From assembly GCA_963829525.1 (NCBI GenBank), contig CAWHIJ010000003.1, positions 320,001-384,000 of the forward strand: 64,000 bases of DNA, read 5' to 3'. The DNA comes from an uncultured Actinomycetota bacterium. Its GTDB lineage: Bacteria; Actinomycetota; Actinomycetes; JAHEKZ01. The translations under genes were made by a program, and so were the position numbers. Below the pieces are notes generated by a model. The model had not been told where the DNA came from. It saw only the letters and a program-made list of their open reading frames with translations, and ran no database searches. Shown here piece after piece: positions 6,014 through 53,212 of the stretch. Positions within the stretch are counted from its first letter, which is position 1; every line of letters starts with the position of its first letter.

Positions 6014-7378
6014 CTAGACGGCGGGGACGGTGGCCAATGCTGCGGCGAATCGCTCCTCGGACACCGGTTCGTCGGTCATCCGGCCGTCGAGGTAGGCGTC
6101 GTAGGCGGCCAGGTCGAAGTGGCCGTGGCCGCAGAGCGCGGTGAGGATCACCTTCTCTTCACCGGTCTCCTTGCAGCGCAGCGCTTCACGCACCGTCTCG
6201 GCGAGCGCATGGGTCGGCTCAGGTGCCGGCACGATGCCTTCAGTCCGGGCGAACTGGAGCCCGGCGGCGAAGCACTCGCTCTGGCCGATCGCCACGGCGT
6301 CCATCAGCCCGAGCTCGTAGACGTGTGAGATCAGCGGGGCCATGCCGTGGTAGCGCAGCCCACCGGCGTGAATCGGGTCTGGCACGAAGTCGTGGCCGAG
6401 GGTATGCATCTTCATAAGTGGCGTCATGCCGGCGGCGTCACCGAAGTCGTACGCGTATCTGCCGTGCGTGAGGGAGGGGCATGACGCCGGTTCGACGGCG
6501 CGGATGTGCGGGTTGATCTTGCCGGCCAGCTTCTCACGCAGGAAGGGGAACGAGAGGCCGGCAAAGTTGGATCCGCCACCGGTGCATCCGACGATGACGT
6601 CCGGCGTCTCGCCAATCTTGGCGAACTGCAGCAGCGCCTCTTCACCGATGATTGTCTGGTGCATGAGGACGTGGTTGAGCACCGAGCCGAGCGCATACCG
6701 CGTCTCTGGTTCGGTCACGGCGACCTCGACGGCCTCACTGATAGCGATGCCGAGGGAACCGGTGTGGTTCGGGTCGGCGGCAAGGTAGGCGCGTCCGGCC
6801 TGCGTCAGCTCAGATGGTGAACGGTGCACCTTGGCGCCGAACGTCTCGATCATCATGCGGCGGTAGGGCTTCTGGTCGTAAGACGCCCCGACCTGCCAGA
6901 CGTCACACTCGATGCCGAACATTGAGCACGCAAGCGCAAGCGCCGTTCCCCACTGTCCGGCCCCCGTCTCGGTGGTGAGCTTGGTGACGCCTGCCTTGGC
7001 GTTGTAGAACGCCTGCGGCACGGCGGTGTTGGGCTTGTGCGATCCAGCCGGTGAAACACCCTCGTACTTGTAGTAGATCCGCGCGGGAGTACCGAGCGCT
7101 TCCTCGAGGCGGTGCGCACGGAACAGGGGGGACGGACGCCAGAGGCGGTAGATGTCCTGTACTTCATCGGGGATGTCAATGAACCGCTCCGACGAAACCT
7201 CTTGCAGGATGAGGTCCATCGGGAAGAGTGGTGCGAGGTCATCAGGGCCGACGGGCTCGTGCGTTCCGGGGTGCAGCGGAGGCGGTGGAGGAGCCGGCAG
7301 GTCGGGCACGATGTTGTACCACTGTGTAGGCATCTCGGACTCATCGAGAACGATCTTGTGCTGCTTCGGCGCTGACAT
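6014..7378 (-). CDS. trpB2: TrpB-like PLP enzyme (TrpB2 type)
   Basis: GSHKPN PLP lysine, [36 protein letters not shown]. Confidence 0.92.
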
Positions 7379-47051: not shown

Positions 47052-48053
47052 CTAGAGCCAACGTCTACGCTTGAACATCACGTAGAGGAGGAGCGAGACG
47101 CCCACCCATATGACGGTGCTTGTCCAGAAGCCGCTGTGTGCCGCGAAACCCGGATAGGGGATGTTCTGCCCGTAGAAGCCGGTGACCGCAGTCGGGACGG
47201 CGATGATGGCCGCCCACGCCGCGAGCTGCCGAGTGACCGTGTTGAGCGAGTGATCGTTGAGTGCGAGACGTGTCTCGTAGATGGTGGTAATCAGGTCGCG
47301 TAGGCCTTCGATGGTGTCGTTGACACGCAGAACGTGGTCGTAGACGTCCTGGAAGTAGGGCTGCATAGCTGCGTTGACGGTTGATCGACCGCCCTCCTCG
47401 TGACGCATGAGTCCCGAAACGAGTTCGCGCATCGGCTGGGCCGCGCGGCGCAGCCGAACCAGCGCCTTACGAGTAGCGAAGCTGTGCTTCTGCGCGTCAC
47501 GCGGGTCGACGTCTCGACTGGGTTGGTCCTGGAACAGAACGTCCTCCATGTCGTCAACCGCGTCAGACAGCGCGTCGACCGTGTCGAGGTATGAGTCGAC
47601 GACAAGGTCAAGAAGTGCGTACAGCAGGGCGGGAATGCCCTGATCGAGCAGCTCAGGATTCTGCTCCCAGCGGGTGACAAGGTCGCTCATTTCGATGGGG
47701 TGCGAGTGCTCCACCGCGATAACGCTCTCGTTTGTGATGATCACCGGCGAACCGCGTAAGTCGAGGGTTGTGTCGTTGCCGAGCTCTGATCGGTAGAGAT
47801 ACAAGAGGACACAGTTGGGGAAGCGCTCGAGCTTAGTGCGGTGAGCTTGAATGCCGTCGCCGTTGGTGCTGTTGATGACCTCTTCGACCGCACGTGGGTG
47901 AATGTCTAGGAGTGGGCCAAGGTGACGCATCTCGTCGGGGGTCACCTGGATCCACACGACACTCTCGGGGTCTGACGCGAGGCCGACGGCGGCAGCGACG
48001 TTGACCGAGCGATGTTCCAGAGAACGTCCTCGCAACTCCCATACGTCGGCCAC
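47052..48053 (-). CDS. corA: CorA-family Mg2+/Co2+ transporter
   Basis: YFQDVYDH, PTAVTGFYGQN (GxN), C-terminal FKRRRWL. Confidence 0.9.
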   Translation of the reverse strand: MADVWELRGRSLEHRSVNVAAAVGLASDPESVVWIQVTPDEMRHLGPLLDIHPRAVEEVINSTNGDGIQAHRTKLERFPNCVLLYLYRSELGNDTTLDLRGSPVIITNESVIAVEHSHPIEMSDLVTRWEQNPELLDQGIPALLYALLDLVVDSYLDTVDALSDAVDDMEDVLFQDQPSRDVDPRDAQKHSFATRKALVRLRRAAQPMRELVSGLMRHEEGGRSTVNAAMQPYFQDVYDHVLRVNDTIEGLRDLITTIYETRLALNDHSLNTVTRQLAAWAAIIAVPTAVTGFYGQNIPYPGFAAHSGFWTSTVIWVGVSLLLYVMFKRRRWL

Positions 48054-48145: not shown

Positions 48146-48236
48146 GGAGGCGTCGCCTAGTCCGGTCGATGGCGCCCGCCTGCTAAGCGGGTTGGGGTCT
48201 TAAAGCCCCTCGGGGGTTCAAATCCCCCCGCCTCCG
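48146..48236 (+). tRNA. tRNA-Ser(GCT)
   Basis: GGAGGCG/CGCCTCC stem, CTGCTAA loop, long variable arm, GTTCAAATC. Confidence 0.95.
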
Positions 48237-48249
48237 CCCCGTCAGTCAT

Positions 48250-48307
48250 CGAGACTGCAGTAGATGCCCACTGAGAGCCCTCAGCGCGGGCATCTACTGC
48301 AGTCTCG
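48250..48307. repeat. Perfect 20-bp inverted repeat CGAGACTGCAGTAGATGCCC with an inner stem (REP-like hairpin or terminator)
   Basis: Arms at 48250-48269 and 48288-48307. Confidence 0.85.
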
Positions 48308-48384: not shown

Positions 48385-48457
48385 GCGCCCGTAGCTCAAC
48401 GGATAGAGCATCTGACTACGGATCAGAAGGTTGGGAGTTCGAATCTCTCCGGGCGCG
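48385..48457 (+). tRNA. tRNA-Arg(ACG)
   Basis: GCGCCCG/CGGGCGC stem, CTACGGA loop, GTTCGAATC. Confidence 0.96.
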
Positions 48458-48737
48458 CAACGTCAGTGTTTGGTTCCGGCTGATGCGTGACGTTTTGGCT
48501 TCGGCTGATGAGTCACGGTGGTTCCGCATGATCGGTGACACTTCTCCGATGTTGGTGGAGCAGAGATTTCAAGTGGTCGACGTGACGGTAACTGCGTTTC
48601 ATTGCCTCTTCGTCGTGGCCACCCCAGACCGCAACCACGTGTCGGGCACACCCTTCGGCGAAGGGTATGGGCTGGCCGGTCTAGTCTTCCGGCGTGGCTC
48701 GTCATGAGCCAGGGCACCGCCGGAGCAGAATCGCGGC

Positions 48738-49373
48738 ATGGCAGCAGAGGACGCGGGGCCGAGACGCCGACGACTGACGACAGGGCGGCTGGAGGCGTTC
48801 AGCGATGGCGTGTTTGCGATCGCGGTCACGTTGCTCATCTTGGATGTTGCGGTTCCGGCGGACTCGGACAGCAATCTTCTCGCATCGATCGGGGACCAGT
48901 GGCCGTCGTACCTGGCCTACCTGGTGAGTTTCTCGACCATAGGGGCGGTTTGGCTGGCGCACACTGTTATCACGGAGTATCTGGATCGTGCCGATGCGGT
49001 ATTCGTGCGGTTGAACCTGCTGCTCCTGCTGGTGGTTTCATTCTTGCCCTTCCCGACTCGGCTATTGGCGGAGTACGTCGAGGAGAGCGGGGCCGAGCGG
49101 GTGGCGGTCACGATCTACGGGATCAACCTCTTTCTCGCGTCGGTCTTGGTGTCAGTTCTGTGGCGCTACGCCGTTCGGGAACGTCTGCTGCGTCCCGATG
49201 CGAACGACGACGATGTCCGACTGTTGACTCGGCGGCTGACACCGGGTCTCGCCGGATACCTGGTCCTGATTGCGCTCGGGCTCTTCCTGCCCGTCGCTGC
49301 GGTGATCGGATACCTGCTGGTCGCGGTCTACTTCATCGTGCCGATAAGGAAGATCCGACACCGACAGACCTGA
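48738..49373 (+). CDS. TMEM175-family potassium channel
   Basis: RLEAFSDGVFAIAVTLL (RxxxFSD), six TM segments. Confidence 0.9.
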   Translation: MAAEDAGPRRRRLTTGRLEAFSDGVFAIAVTLLILDVAVPADSDSNLLASIGDQWPSYLAYLVSFSTIGAVWLAHTVITEYLDRADAVFVRLNLLLLLVVSFLPFPTRLLAEYVEESGAERVAVTIYGINLFLASVLVSVLWRYAVRERLLRPDANDDDVRLLTRRLTPGLAGYLVLIALGLFLPVAAVIGYLLVAVYFIVPIRKIRHRQT

Positions 49374-49504
49374 CCGGCGTTGGGGCGGCGTCTCAACCTG
49401 TGGTGGCACAACTGTCTCGCAACGATGCGATCCACCTGCCGGCTTGGTGACGCGTCCCTCGCAGGGCACGACACCTGTGCAACCCCATGGCACACCAATG
49501 GCCA

Positions 49505-49548
49505 GACTACGGATCAGGAGGTTGGGAGTTCGAATCTCTCCGGGCGCG
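49505..49548 (+). repeat. tRNA-Arg 3'-half direct repeat (att-like), followed by CCA
   Basis: 43/44 identical to 48414-48457. Confidence 0.95.
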
Positions 49549-49673
49549 CCACAGGACGCCAGGTAAGTACCGGTTACTGCGGTGAAAGGACCGGGCGACT
49601 CTGGGCTTTCGGGGCGCATTACTGCAGCGATTACTGCAGTCCAGTTCGGGAGTGTTGCGGGCAGTCTCTGAAC

Positions 49674-49988
49674 CTAACTTGCCGTGGCGTCGCCGGCGAG
49701 GCCGATGAGGGTTGACCAATCGGGCGCTGCAATCAGTCCGTGCTCCACCCGGGGGAAGGGCAGCGCGAGCGGTTCGAGATGGCGCTGAACGTGCCCGCCG
49801 AACCCGTCGTGACCAACACCGGGTCCCCATACCAGCGTGACGAGCAGTCCCGCCTCCCCGCGGGCGACGACAACCGTGTCTGGTGACACGCCCCCCGAGC
49901 CCTGCCAGCGACGCGCTGCTTCTGCGTACCCGGCGAGGAGCACGTCCGGGTCGCCGGGGAAGTGCAGCATGACCACGTCTTGGCTCAT
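49674..49988 (-). CDS. Small hypothetical protein (possibly dimeric alpha/beta barrel)
   Basis: ATG after AAGGAG; divergent from MarR. Confidence 0.6.
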   Translation of the reverse strand: MSQDVVMLHFPGDPDVLLAGYAEAARRWQGSGGVSPDTVVVARGEAGLLVTLVWGPGVGHDGFGGHVQRHLEPLALPFPRVEHGLIAAPDWSTLIGLAGDATAS

Positions 49989-50039
49989 CGCAGGCTCCTT
50001 CAGTATAGTTTCTTTACTGTGAAAGGACGGTACAGGAAT

Positions 50040-50498
50040 TTGACCAACTCGTCTACGACCGGTGCGCCACTGGTAGGTGCACTGCTTCGTCGGCCGTTCT
50101 TCACGATGCGGCGCCGCATCGTGTCGGCCCTGCACCGGGAGGGTTACACAGACGTGCAGGCGTCTCACCTCGCCGTCTTCCAGTACCCCGGACCCGAGGG
50201 ACGGTCACCCCTGGAGTTGGCGCGGGATGCTCAGGTGAGCAAGCAGGTCATGAACCACCTACTCACCCAGCTCGAGCACGGTCAGTACCTGGAGCGGGTC
50301 ATCAATCCCGGCAATCATCGCCTGCGTCAGGTGGCGCTCACGGAGCAGGGCCACGCTGTCGTGGCGGTGATCCGCTCTGCCGTTGCAGAGGTGGAGTCGG
50401 AGTGGAAGACGGTCCTGGGACCAAGCACCTATCGACAACTGCGTGGCGCCTTGTTGGAACTCGCTGGCCATCTCGAGCTACCCGAGGGGGATCGCTGA
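50040..50498 (+). CDS. MarR-family regulator
   Basis: ELARDAQVSKQVMNHLLTQLEHGQYLER..LTEQG winged helix; CAGTATAG-TTT-CTTTACTG inverted repeat at 50001-50019. Confidence 0.85.
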   Translation: MTNSSTTGAPLVGALLRRPFFTMRRRIVSALHREGYTDVQASHLAVFQYPGPEGRSPLELARDAQVSKQVMNHLLTQLEHGQYLERVINPGNHRLRQVALTEQGHAVVAVIRSAVAEVESEWKTVLGPSTYRQLRGALLELAGHLELPEGDR

Positions 50499-50528
50499 GC
50501 CCGCGATCCCGTGGGGGAGCGGCCCGCG

Positions 50529-50601
50529 ACCGCGGACGACGTCGGCAGAACCGTGGCCCGGGCCATCGAGGCGGGTGTGGTGGGTGGCAACATCGAGGAT
50601 T
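50529..50601 (+). pseudogene. Fragment of an ICL/PEP-mutase family gene
   Basis: TADDVGRTVARAIEAGVVGGNIED is 19/24 aa identical to the intact gene at 52676-52748. Confidence 0.7.
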
Positions 50602-50752
50602 TCGGGCCGAATGATTTGATCAGCGATGGTGCCCTTGCCTTACTGCAACCGTTACTGCAACGCCGAGGAACTGAGGGAGACTCCGGAACACTTCCTGAGA
50701 ATGACGTGAGCGTGCTGACACGTCAGGAGACGTGGTGAGACGGCAAAACTAG

Positions 50753-50796
50753 GACTACGGATCAGAAGGTTGGGAGTTCGAATCTGTCCGGTCGCG
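50753..50796 (+). repeat. tRNA-Arg 3'-half direct repeat (att-like)
   Basis: 42/44 identical to 48414-48457. Confidence 0.95.
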
Positions 50797-51011
50797 CAAC
50801 ATTGCTGCAGGTCAGACGCACCGCGCCGCAGCCGACACCATCTCGACACCGGTGCAAGGGCACAGATACCTCGGTGAAGGAACTGTTTGACCGCCTCCGG
50901 GCATACGGGTTCTTTCCCCTGGTCCTGCTGGATGTTTTCGTTCTCGTCAAGGTCACCGACGATGGCGACCCAACGACTGCGTGCGCTGCTCACTGGGATG
51001 AATCTGACCGC

Positions 51012-51048
51012 ACCACGGATCAGGGGGGGGGGCTTTCGACTGCGTCCG
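51012..51048 (+). repeat. Degenerate tRNA-Arg 3'-half copy
   Basis: Gapless 26/37 match retaining ACGGATCAG..TTCGA..TCCG at the correct spacing. Confidence 0.5.
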
Positions 51049-51124
51049 ACCTATGGATGGCTTTGGCCTCTACCACGCCTCGCATTAGGTCGCCACGATC
51101 GAATTGTCAGGGGGGGTGGATGTC

Positions 51125-51496
51125 ATGACAGCCCCAGTCAGCCAGCGTCCAGTGGTTCCCAAGTCGACGCAATCCGCGTGGCTTGTCCTCGCTGTTGGCA
51201 CGCTTGTTACGTTCTTCCTGGGCGTGGCCTCGCAGTTGGCCGTCTTCATCTCTCTCGGTCTCTGCCTGGACGAGGATCCGGACTTGTGCGATCCGGGCAC
51301 GTATCCCACGACGGCCGAGCATCTGCTCGCCACGATCCCGACCTACGCCCTGTGGGTGGCGCCGGCACTCGTCGCGGTGTTCATGGGATACCGGATCGTG
51401 AAGTCCGGGAACGTTGCCGGGCGCACCGTGATGGTCACCGCGGGTGTCGTTGCTGCTCTCGTGACGGTGGTCGCGACGCTCATGTGGTGGATTTGA
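51125..51496 (+). CDS. Small hypothetical membrane protein (3 TM, Cys-x6-Cys loop)
   Basis: Hydrophobic ORF with high-GC codon usage. Confidence 0.6.
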   Translation: MTAPVSQRPVVPKSTQSAWLVLAVGTLVTFFLGVASQLAVFISLGLCLDEDPDLCDPGTYPTTAEHLLATIPTYALWVAPALVAVFMGYRIVKSGNVAGRTVMVTAGVVAALVTVVATLMWWI

Positions 51497-51524
51497 TTTC
51501 ACGGGTGCAACTGGCTGGGAATTG

Positions 51525-51552
51525 GGGAGTTCGAATCTCTCCGGGCGCACCA
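51525..51552 (+). repeat. tRNA-Arg T-arm/acceptor direct repeat (att-like) ending ACCA
   Basis: GGGAGTTCGAATCTCTCCGGGCGC is 24/24 identical to the tRNA 3' end. Confidence 0.9.
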
Positions 51553-51570: not shown

Positions 51571-52146
51571 TCAATTTGGGCTGGGTAGCTCCCTCGGGGA
51601 GTACACGAGGCGCAGAACTCCCGTCGGGAAAGCTTGTGAGCTCACAAGGTCCATTGGGTAGATCGGCTCGCCGTCGTCGAACAGTCTCATACCGGTTCGC
51701 GCTGCAACGGGGTGCACCAGCAACCGTAGTTCGTCGAGCAGCTCCGCTGCGAGTAGTTGTCGCACTACCGAGATTGACCCCGCTACCAGGATCTTGTCCA
51801 TCGTCGCTTCGCGCTTCAGCGCCGTCACGGCTTCGATCAAGTCGCCGTGCACCGCGTGCACATTTCGCCAGCCAAGATCCTGGCCCCTATGTGTGGCAAC
51901 GAGTTTGGGGGTGTCTCCAAGCTGAGCGGCGAACGTCGAGTCCTCACCTCCGGCGGCCTCGCGCTCTGGCCAAGCACCGGCGAAGCTGTCGTAGGTGACT
52001 CGTCCCAGAAGGAGGAGGTCCACGTCTTCGTAGTCCTCGCTCACCGCTGCACCCATGTTTGCGTCGAAGTATGGGGAGTGCCAGACGGGGTCTACTTCCA
52101 CCACGCCGTCAAGCGCCATGAACAACGTGGAAACGATCTTGGTCAT
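51571..52146 (-). CDS. Dihydrofolate reductase/RibD C-terminal family protein
   Basis: FMALDGV, LLLGRVTY, GSISVV, LLDELRLLVHPV. Confidence 0.88.
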   Translation of the reverse strand: MTKIVSTLFMALDGVVEVDPVWHSPYFDANMGAAVSEDYEDVDLLLLGRVTYDSFAGAWPEREAAGGEDSTFAAQLGDTPKLVATHRGQDLGWRNVHAVHGDLIEAVTALKREATMDKILVAGSISVVRQLLAAELLDELRLLVHPVAARTGMRLFDDGEPIYPMDLVSSQAFPTGVLRLVYSPRELPSPN

Positions 52147-52396
52147 CTGTTCCCCCTGGACGTACCGAGGTGTGGAGTACCGGCCCCTCAGCAATGCCGA
52201 TGGTCACAGGGTCCATGGTGTGCGGTCAATGTCCTAGCCCAGCCACCTATGCCGGCACTTGCGTTCGGCGCCATTTTTCCCGGCGGCATGACGGTGCCTG
52301 GGTATCGCATCGGGCCGCCATTGTCGACAATGGGCTAGTGCTCACTGGCCAGCTGGACGACAATGGCTCGGTGTCTCTCGCCAACGTGGAGGGCTC

Positions 52397-53212
52397 GTGA
52401 CAGCCAAATCTCCGATGAACAGGGCAGCTGCCCTCCTTGCTTTGCACACCGGCCCCGGCTTCGTGCTCCCCAATGCGTGGGACGCGGGATCCGCCCGCGT
52501 CCTCGAGCAGGTCGGCTTCCCCGCCATCGCCACCACCAGCGCCGGCATCGCCTGGTCGTGCGGAGTTCCGGACGGAGAAGCGCTGGACCGCGACACGATG
52601 CTTGACCACGTGGCGCGCATCGTGGCTGCGGTGGGTGTGCCCGTGACCGCGGACCTCGAAGCCGGGTACGGCGACACCGCGGACGCTGTCGGCATCACCG
52701 TTGCCCGGGCAGTCGAACTGGGTGCCGTTGGCGGCAACATTGAGGATTCCAGGGCTGGCGGACTGATCAGCATCGATGAGGCCGTCGACCGTCTTGCGGC
52801 CGCCCGGGCAGCCGGGCCCAGCGGCACCTTCGTGCTGAACGCCCGAACTGACACCTACTTCGTCGGTACGAGTGGTGACGCATTCGACGAGACCGTCGAA
52901 CGCGCAGTTAGGTACGTCGAAGCGGGCGCCGACTGCGTCTTCGTGCCCGGGGTCGTTGAAGAGGAGACGATCCGCCAACTCTCCGAGGCCATCCCCGGCC
53001 CGCTCAACGTGGTAGCCGGGCTTGCGAACCTCATCGATGCGCCGACACTCTTCTCGCTTGGCGTCAAACGGGTCAGCCTGGGCGGCAGTTTGGCACGCGC
53101 CACACTTAGCACGTTGGAGCGCGCCGGCCGCGAGCTGCTTGACTCCGGAACGCTCGACTTCCTCGACGGCGCGATCGGGTACGCCGATCTGCAGCGACGC
53201 TTTGGCTCGTGA
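52397..53212 (+). CDS. Isocitrate lyase/PEP mutase family protein
   Basis: PNAWDAGSA, ATTSAG, DLEAGYG, GNIED, NARTD, GADCVFVP. Confidence 0.9.
   Translation: MTAKSPMNRAAALLALHTGPGFVLPNAWDAGSARVLEQVGFPAIATTSAGIAWSCGVPDGEALDRDTMLDHVARIVAAVGVPVTADLEAGYGDTADAVGITVARAVELGAVGGNIEDSRAGGLISIDEAVDRLAAARAAGPSGTFVLNARTDTYFVGTSGDAFDETVERAVRYVEAGADCVFVPGVVEEETIRQLSEAIPGPLNVVAGLANLIDAPTLFSLGVKRVSLGGSLARATLSTLERAGRELLDSGTLDFLDGAIGYADLQRRFGS

Follow-up and report, generated by a model that had tools for sequence, protein, structure and literature searches.

The stretch of DNA analysed here, 64,000 nucleotides of contig CAWHIJ010000003.1 (positions 320,001–384,000) from an uncultured Actinomycetota bacterium, is referred to as the window, and all coordinates without a contig prefix refer to it. 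It contains an intact tRNA-Arg(ACG) gene that is followed on the same strand by displaced copies of its own 3′ part, between which short intervals, here called cassettes, carry a few small genes. The duplicated unit, as delimited with a repeat finder and a dedicated scan, comprises tRNA-Arg positions 30–74 (45 nt, 48414–48458) and is designated the attachment (att) core; P and P′ denote the arm regions before and after a core, and type A is the kind of arm found in the window. The array is composed as follows:

48385–48458, + strand: intact tRNA-Arg(ACG) (ARAGORN and Rfam), the last 45 nt of which are the att core
48466–48600, + strand: left-end remnant of an IS481-like element, with three ~24-nt subterminal repeats (48469–48540) and ~10 transposase codons from an ATG at 48549
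48738–49373, + strand: TMEM175-family K+ channel gene, cargo of cassette 1 (PF06736, E 5e-27)
49505–49549, + strand: att copy 1, 44/45 ungapped identity to the core
49550–49645, + strand: type A P′ arm of cassette 2, with TTACTGCG at 49574 and tandem TTACTGCA at 49619 and 49631
49674–49988, − strand: open reading frame (ORF) of 104 amino acids without family match, divergent from the MarR-type gene
~50040–50498, + strand: MarR-type helix-turn-helix regulator with weak family matches, start codon inferred
50529–50624, + strand: internal fragment of a phosphoenolpyruvate (PEP)-mutase/isocitrate-lyase family gene, read as a deletion scar (PF13714 positions 83–108 of 240 only)
50640–50752, + strand: type A P arm of cassette 2, 113 nt, with tandem TTACTGCAAC at −113 and then a GACGTG..CACGTC palindrome
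50753–50797, + strand: att copy 2, 43/45 ungapped identity to the core
50807–50815, + strand: GCAGGTCAG motif, 10 nt after the core of att copy 2
51011–51048, + strand: probable degenerate att copy 3, 27/45 ungapped, locally 26/37 matched
51104–51496, + strand: ORF of 130 amino acids with hydrophobic stretches, without family match
51521–51552, + strand: att copy 4, right core half only, ending in GCGCACCA, with 24 nt exact at 51525–51548

A sequence-only reading of the window had pointed out that the 3′ part of tRNA-Arg recurs downstream as direct repeats, and for copies 1, 2 and 4 this was borne out. Because the next best ungapped scores against the core on both strands of the 64-kb window are only 26 (once) and 25 (four times), the copies at 49505, 50753 and 51525, with blastn-short E values of 3e-18, 8e-16 and 4.5e-8, respectively, lie far beyond chance; copy 4, kept in register from 51506, has 32/45 ungapped identities. 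The same reading had placed a degenerate copy at 51012. This one can be called probable only: its local alignment score, starting at 51011, is 15 as compared to a maximum of 14 in ~2,900 random 80-nt windows from the same stretch. When the 2.96-Mb genome was scanned with a 23-nt core pattern, allowing up to three mismatches, all four occurrences lay at the tRNA-Arg locus, and no further core copy was found elsewhere. The repeats are real att copies. In addition, the tRNA-Arg of the window ends in GCGCGC-AAC and att copy 1 in GCGCGCCAC (48455–48462 compared), whereas in insertion-free relatives (L039, L040, L042, L044, L047) the gene encodes the CCA end (GCGCG-CCA), which agrees with a present 3′ end that was supplied by an integrated element. 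It may be mentioned that a run of 10 G at 51022–51033 stands in place of the middle of att copy 3 and that another G-rich run, GGGGGGG, is found at 51111–51117.

Cassette 2 (49550–50752), which lies between att copies 1 and 2, is the best preserved unit. Its type A arm repeats have the sequence TACTGCA, and tandem TACTGCA(AC) is present both at −113 (50640), where the P arm begins, and at +71 (49619), counted from the core of att copy 1, where the tandem TTACTGCA begins. The pattern TACTGCR-N(2–6)-TACTGCR occurs twice in the genome, both times in cassette 2, and a combined core-plus-P′-arm pattern was found in the window genome only among 401 genomes of the class; a search of the family with the tandem TACTGCR pattern scored no better than the control. 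In phage lambda, phage L5 and pSAM2, attP contains arm-type integrase sites. The design is similar here: direct repeats lie ~70–115 nt to either side of the core, and the integrases of the related elements described below have a SAM-like region (PF14659) N-terminal to the catalytic domain. Binding of the TACTGCA repeats by an integrase is, in contrast to those systems, deduced from sequence, and the repeats are thus best described as putative arm-binding sites. Cassette 2 has the two arms of an attP built like that of the intact elements, with other arm repeats and without an integrase. The GCAGGTCAG motif, found at the equivalent position in these intact elements, after many other att copies and beside a tRNA-Pro element of the same genome, is characteristic of the P′ side in this family of elements. 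In the window it lies at +10 in the interval 50798–51010, in which there is no credible gene. Att cores flank every unit of the array, as attL and attR flank a cis-mobilizable element (CIME), and full arm regions on both sides are found in cassette 2 only.

A 6.5-kb query was compared with 40 relatives, from which tRNA-Arg regions were then fetched; two genomes flagged as unpublished support none of the claims made here. Extra core copies are present in 10 of the 15 relatives with a fetched locus (G003, G005, G006, G007, G008, G009, G015, G016, G018, and G019); these partial copies begin at tRNA position 30–32 and extend to the 3′ end. In the other five (G001, G004, G012, G014, and G017) the stretch covered contains the intact tRNA only, the contig of G014 ending ~390 nt past it. 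The tRNA-Arg(ACG) gene is thus an integration hot spot across the family. The DNA between the core copies varies from genome to genome. With the cassette proteins of the window as tblastn queries only the MarR-type gene was found again, and only in G015; identical segments in identical order, which the sequence-only reading had named as one possible refutation, are therefore not what the relatives show.

In three of the relatives (G007:C20, G016:C5, and G006:C77), intact elements of 9–12.5 kb lie between core copies. The distance from tRNA to core is 10.1 kb in G007:C20 and 9 kb in G016:C5; the element in G006:C77 has a core piece of 27 nt at one end and a full core at the other, and its boundary shows the same short GCGCACC core variant as att copy 4 of the window. 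The intact elements encode a tyrosine integrase of 400–402 amino acids (408–410-amino-acid open frame; PF00589 2e-24, PF14659), to which the closest phage integrases are 32–37% identical, and a TrwC/MobF relaxase that includes an AAA_30 helicase part (6e-71; Pfam/NCBIfam). They also have a protein with an HTH_17 match under the cut-off (E 7e-5), possibly an excisionase, and a split HipA-like pair consisting of a Couple_hipA plus HIRAN ORF and a separate HipA_C ORF. The remaining cargo is variable: an extracytoplasmic function (ECF) sigma factor with a META-domain protein, an ABC transporter, or Fic. The elements are integrative mobilizable elements (IMEs). The integrase module occupies the tRNA side, and the cargo is found distally. 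Their arms, here called type B, follow the type A design. Conserved are ~113 nt before the distal core, starting with two tandem 12-nt CAGCTATG units (−113); behind the tRNA-side core lie GCAGGTCAGAG (+10), then a hairpin, and at +73 a second tandem pair of CAGCTATG units. Type A and type B arms are thus parallel (repeats at −113/+71 and −113/+73, respectively), and both use the same core; type A appears to be a sister lineage of the intact elements. The HipA-like pair of these elements adjoins the tRNA (L041:236–1845(−), L032:14488–16187 and L046:11837–12610); the split HipA/HIRAN arrangement is an unusual domain combination for what is possibly an addiction module.

Type A units are not restricted to the window. 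Arm A plus core, 83–97% conserved, is present in seven copies in six relatives (G015, G019, G008, G003, G009 twice, and G006), and arm A in eight copies on seven metagenome contigs, of which L064 holds two. The similarity always begins at the first TACTGCAAC unit, and the sequence to the left of it differs, except in G015. Where the previous core is visible, its distance from arm A is 0.74 kb in L064, 0.92–0.94 kb in G006 and G003, 1.06 kb in L066, 1.2 kb in the window, 1.7 kb in G008, 2.4 kb in G009 and 5.6 kb in G019. Among the type A units with an inspectable left side, only cassette 2 of the window has kept the type A P′ arm. Arm A was also considered as a structured RNA and rejected as such: Rfam gives only the two tRNAs above threshold, and the consensus fold of arm plus core has a covariation term of +0.4, with compensatory change in 2 of 40 pairs, and hence no covariation support.

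Evidence for transfer comes from G015, which belongs to another genus (CorA 56% amino acid identity). Its contig C91 is 97% identical to window positions 50030–50800, a match that spans the MarR-type gene (98% amino acid identity), the PEP-mutase fragment, arm A and the core, and that reaches the end of the 2,161-nt contig. The core on this contig matches the tRNA-Arg of G015 itself without a mismatch (45/45), and four positions distinguish it from the window tRNA; the cores in G019 and G016 likewise show the GAGTC variant of their own host. A host-type core in G015 is predicted by a crossover near the anticodon loop, since the distal copy then retains the old tRNA end of the recipient. Cargo acquisition is also indicated for cassette 1. 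The TMEM175 gene of the window has 82–83% nucleotide identity to genes of other genera (G017, G018) and only 67–71% to those of same-genus relatives, where the genes are located elsewhere in the genome; that it is nearer to other genera than to its own fits acquired cargo. On metagenome contig L068 a distant TMEM175-family gene (1579–1998(−); 35% amino acid identity to that of the window) is found just before a type A arm and core (2293–2450), and the family may be recurrent cargo at the tRNA-Arg site.

The window itself contains no match to PF00589, the nearest one (C3:497373) being 113 kb past the window end, and the only tblastn match in the genome to the relaxase of the relatives' elements, C3:493871–496267, is also outside, so that a mobilization module is missing from the window. 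All PF00589 matches in the genome are accounted for by two Xer-like genes, one split gene, one remnant and one 410-amino-acid open frame at tRNA-Pro, which is 30–33% identical to the tRNA-Arg type. The latter belongs to an apparently intact IME of 11.6 kb in tRNA-Pro(CGG) (C3:486526–498207), bounded by a 22-nt repeat of the tRNA end, with the integrase adjoining the tRNA, a TrwC-type relaxase (31% identity), and GCAGGTCAGAG after the core followed by tandem TTGGTCACAGGA. The element looks like a third variant of the tRNA-Arg element design. As its integrase has another core and other arm repeats, it would not be expected to serve the tRNA-Arg units. The search for a cognate integrase that the sequence-only reading had suggested thus came back empty by PF00589 profile and by tblastn, and the genome appears to encode none.

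Several features of the array look like marks of decay. The PEP-mutase fragment in cassette 2 covers ~100 nt, with 74% nucleotide identity to positions 52676–52771 of the full gene downstream of the array. The region around it (50511–50640) is nearer to the PEP-mutase genes downstream of the locus in G016 and G005 (L032:3401–3496, L033:9877–9972; 25/32 amino acids) than to that of its own genome (22/32), a hint that an ancestor of the cassette took up flanking host DNA in an earlier host. In cassette 1, the IS481-like remnant starts 8 nt past tRNA-Arg; its reading frame opens with ATG-TTG-GTG-GAG, and the similarity stops after ~10 codons. It is 75–87% identical in nucleotides to ends located right after tRNA-Lys, tRNA-Met and tRNA-Thr in relatives, where they lead into a transposase frame. 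A single such ORF was scanned (G018) and matched IS481 (NF033577, E 4.7e-44); being a fragment, it stays under the curated cut-off. A reading of the ~24-nt repeats behind the tRNA as integrase arm sites was rejected, as they are the ends of the IS481-like element. No rve transposase match was found in the whole genome. The statement that the window holds neither integrase nor transposase is therefore correct as far as genes are concerned, with neither PF00589 nor a transposase gene detected, but has to be modified in that a trace of a transposon, the IS481-like end, is present.

Taken together, these findings are best explained by an accretion of decayed, integrase-less, CIME-like remnants of tRNA-Arg-specific IMEs, a reading to which we assign a probability of roughly 0.78. 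IMEs whose attachment site is the 45-nt 3′ end of tRNA-Arg(ACG) would have integrated here several times, and with every integration a copy of the tRNA end would have been moved downstream. The elements would then each have lost their integrase-proximal, tRNA-side part through deletion, leaving short cargo pieces between att copies. Given the gene order of the intact elements, with the integrase module on the tRNA side, deletions from near the tRNA would remove P′ arm and integrase and spare cargo, P arm and distal core, and this is the pattern with which the window seems to agree. Cassette 2 would be a miniature type A element, having both arm regions with arm-type repeats and no recombinase; the remaining intervals would be more degraded, and cassette 1 would additionally have been struck by the IS481-like element beside the tRNA, which was later truncated. 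Both the order of events and deletion as the cause of the integrase loss are part of this reconstruction. Of the remnants in the array, only cassette 2 appears to be still complete in cis-acting sites, and nothing in the window genome seems able to move these pieces now; remobilization would occur only if a cognate element arrived with its integrase, via accretion or by action in trans, the latter being a possibility for cassette 2 alone, which keeps both arms. A graveyard of serially deleted islands had been one of two options in the sequence-only reading; it has gained support from the integrase-bearing elements at the same 45-nt core in relatives and from the deletion scars (PEP-mutase fragment, cut IS481-like end, missing P′ arms).

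It should be noted, however, that some observations speak against this reading. All 16 type A arm copies (one in the window, seven in relatives, eight on metagenome contigs) are located in integrase-free surroundings, 0.74–5.6 kb from the previous core where the latter is visible. There is no PF00589 match at the type A sites of the relatives mapped (PF00589 maps were made for ten) and no tblastn match to the type B integrase or relaxase on the seven arm A metagenome contigs, most of which are only 1–3 kb long. No intact integrase-bearing type A element turned up among 20 family/order genomes, among the 401 class genomes, or in one scan each of genome_contigs, metagenome_contigs and viral_contigs, in which arm A was met on six contigs (none new), seven short contigs and none, respectively. 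The next best integrase homologues in the order (43% and 37% identity) were considered and rejected, as they are not at tRNA-Arg: G007:C85 has no tRNA near, and G006:C196 is at tRNA-Thr. The descent of type A units from an integrase-bearing parent is thus suggested by architecture, the parent itself not having been observed. Finally, the arm A cores in G003 and G009 share four substitutions absent from the tRNA of their hosts and do not fit the simple host-core rule. The integrase-free surroundings would also fit a self-standing, MITE-like (miniature inverted-repeat transposable element) lineage, in which short cargo, 113-nt arm and 45-nt core together are an integrase-less miniature element that circulates among the genera of this uncultured actinomycete family with an integrase supplied in trans by the community. 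The conservation of the arm across genera with a sharp left boundary and differing DNA beyond it, the paired units 785 nt apart in L064 and 2.4 kb apart in G009:C50, and the two arms of cassette 2 are all in accord with such a lineage, and a small island without recombinase genes that can be moved by host functions (MccH47) is on record (PMC3191183, in the portion consulted). Nevertheless, we consider this rather unlikely. In the intact elements, too, an arm (type B) of equal length has an equally sharp boundary beside variable cargo, which makes the boundary a property of attP rather than of a cassette. Having no P′ arm, the other inspectable type A units are left with half of the sites that excision requires; G003, which is 97% complete and has a type A unit, contains only two Xer-sized recombinases; no cognate integrase was found in the window genome; and pseudogene fragments lie within the cassettes. 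If such a lineage did exist, the tRNA-Arg site would be to tyrosine integrases what a cassette array is to integrons.

The other option of the sequence-only reading, an integron-like array of mini-cassettes captured at a tRNA attB by an integrase acting in trans, is not supported. A further rival would be an integron-like system with a single resident integrase, which takes up promoterless cassettes at the attB of the tRNA, and a common promoter that expresses them. A recombination site that recurs between short gene units is indeed reminiscent of integrons, but IntI, attI, Pc and attC are all missing from the window, no PF00589 match lies beside the array, and a dedicated integrase plus promoter on the tRNA side was seen in none of the 15 fetched loci. 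Genes are on both strands, including a divergent regulator/target pair; some units are non-coding or consist of pseudogene pieces; and the repeat is a direct copy of a tRNA 3′ end with lambda-type arm repeats rather than an attC hairpin. The window thus lacks every integron trait that could be examined (intI, attC, single gene orientation), and large integrase-bearing islands with the same ends, which that reading had itself named as evidence to the contrary, exist in relatives. An integron-like system is accordingly rated very improbable. Hardly more credible is an assembly artefact, or a duplication of tRNA fragments by a process other than site-specific integration: repeats can confuse assemblies, and several contigs of relatives do end at a core, yet the array is inside a 2.94-Mb contig, its repeats are only 24–45 nt long with unique DNA between them, the same arm-plus-core unit recurs in independent assemblies, and the boundary at tRNA position 30–32 is constant across genomes.

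Accretion of decayed IMEs has precedents. The decay of ICEs (integrative and conjugative elements) and IMEs to CIMEs, followed by accretion, is described in PMC5704250 for the ICESt1/ICESt3 model; in the part of that article used here, integration and transfer genes are lost and flanking att sites kept, elements form tandem stacks at the target gene's 3′ end, and integrase-bearing relatives of the same site specificity exist, all of which fits the window. Different from what is described there are the unusually small size of the window units (0.2–1.2 kb), the retention of both arms in only one of them, and the lack of a helper element in the genome. At a tRNA-Arg in a Streptomyces population, according to the sections of PMC9513070 considered, one to three actinomycete ICEs (AICEs) or DAICEs are found between identical direct repeats, together with an old remnant without transfer genes. 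Actinobacterial host and tRNA-Arg hot spot are the same; the Streptomyces elements are AICEs of the TraB type, whereas the intact relatives described here have a TrwC/MobF relaxase (TraB was not searched for), and the window holds remnants only. In Dehalococcoides, tandem islands at ssrA, 15 of them without integration module, resemble our case, judging from an excerpt of PMC3146451, in the many direct repeats of the target 3′ end downstream, the coexistence of islands with and without integration module, and a conserved motif by the repeat; the recombinase is, however, a CcrB-like serine recombinase and the target a transfer-messenger RNA gene, in contrast to a tyrosine integrase with arm-type repeats and tRNA-Arg here.

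Current concepts are unchanged, since decay to integrase-less remnants and accretion were already described. What is added is the documentation of a tRNA-Arg(ACG) integration hot spot in poorly known uncultured freshwater/sediment actinomycetes and the definition of the family of small IMEs that feeds it. With the att core, the gene modules and two or three arm types of one design mapped, such loci should be easier to annotate and their mobility easier to predict.

The genes within the cassettes agree with what had been read from the sequence alone, namely a TMEM175 channel, a hypothetical protein with a MarR-type regulator, and a putative small membrane protein, the last being the 130-amino-acid ORF with hydrophobic stretches. 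The assignment of the regulator is based on matches to MarR_2 and HTH_20, both under the Pfam cut-off, and to NCBIfam MarR-family models with E values of 3e-6 to 7e-5, likewise under the cut-off. With 0.58–0.67 across the region, GC content does not distinguish the cassettes. The array is flanked by the following genes:

47052–48053, − strand: CorA Mg2+ transporter gene, the conserved upstream anchor (PF01544, E 8.9e-38)
48146–48238, + strand: tRNA-Ser(GCT) (ARAGORN and Rfam)
51571–52194, − strand: RibD_C-family reductase gene, the first after the array (PF01872, E 2.1e-12)
52397–53212, + strand: full PEP-mutase family gene, the downstream anchor (PF13714, E 1.5e-81)

CorA adjoins tRNA-Ser/tRNA-Arg also in relatives (54–68% amino acid identity). 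The RibD_C-family reductase gene was not found at the tRNA-Arg locus of the fetched relatives. The PEP-mutase gene is common to G005 and G016, where it is located beyond their last att copy (88–90% amino acid identity), and there is a partial match in G009.

IS481-like elements with three to five subterminal ~24-nt repeats (consensus ~TTCGGCTGATGGGTGACA) were seen ~10–20 nt past tRNA genes or their 3′ fragments in relatives, the tRNAs flanked being Lys-CTT, Met, Lys-TTT and Thr-CGT. Their ends are at L049:5660–5790, L050:5775–5900, L052:5655–5900 and 6730–6840, L053:1320–1435(−), L048:4990–5100(−) and L051:940–1040. This suggests a lineage of the IS481 family that targets the flanks of tRNA genes, of which the window genome keeps just the one truncated end.

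Between tRNA-Ser and tRNA-Arg there is an inverted repeat with perfect 20-nt arms around an 18-nt loop (48250–48307), which probably is a terminator. Relatives have hairpins of different sequence at this place. The arms of the hairpin in the window contain TACTGCAGTC, a 10-mer that is also part of the second type A P′ arm repeat (49632–49641).

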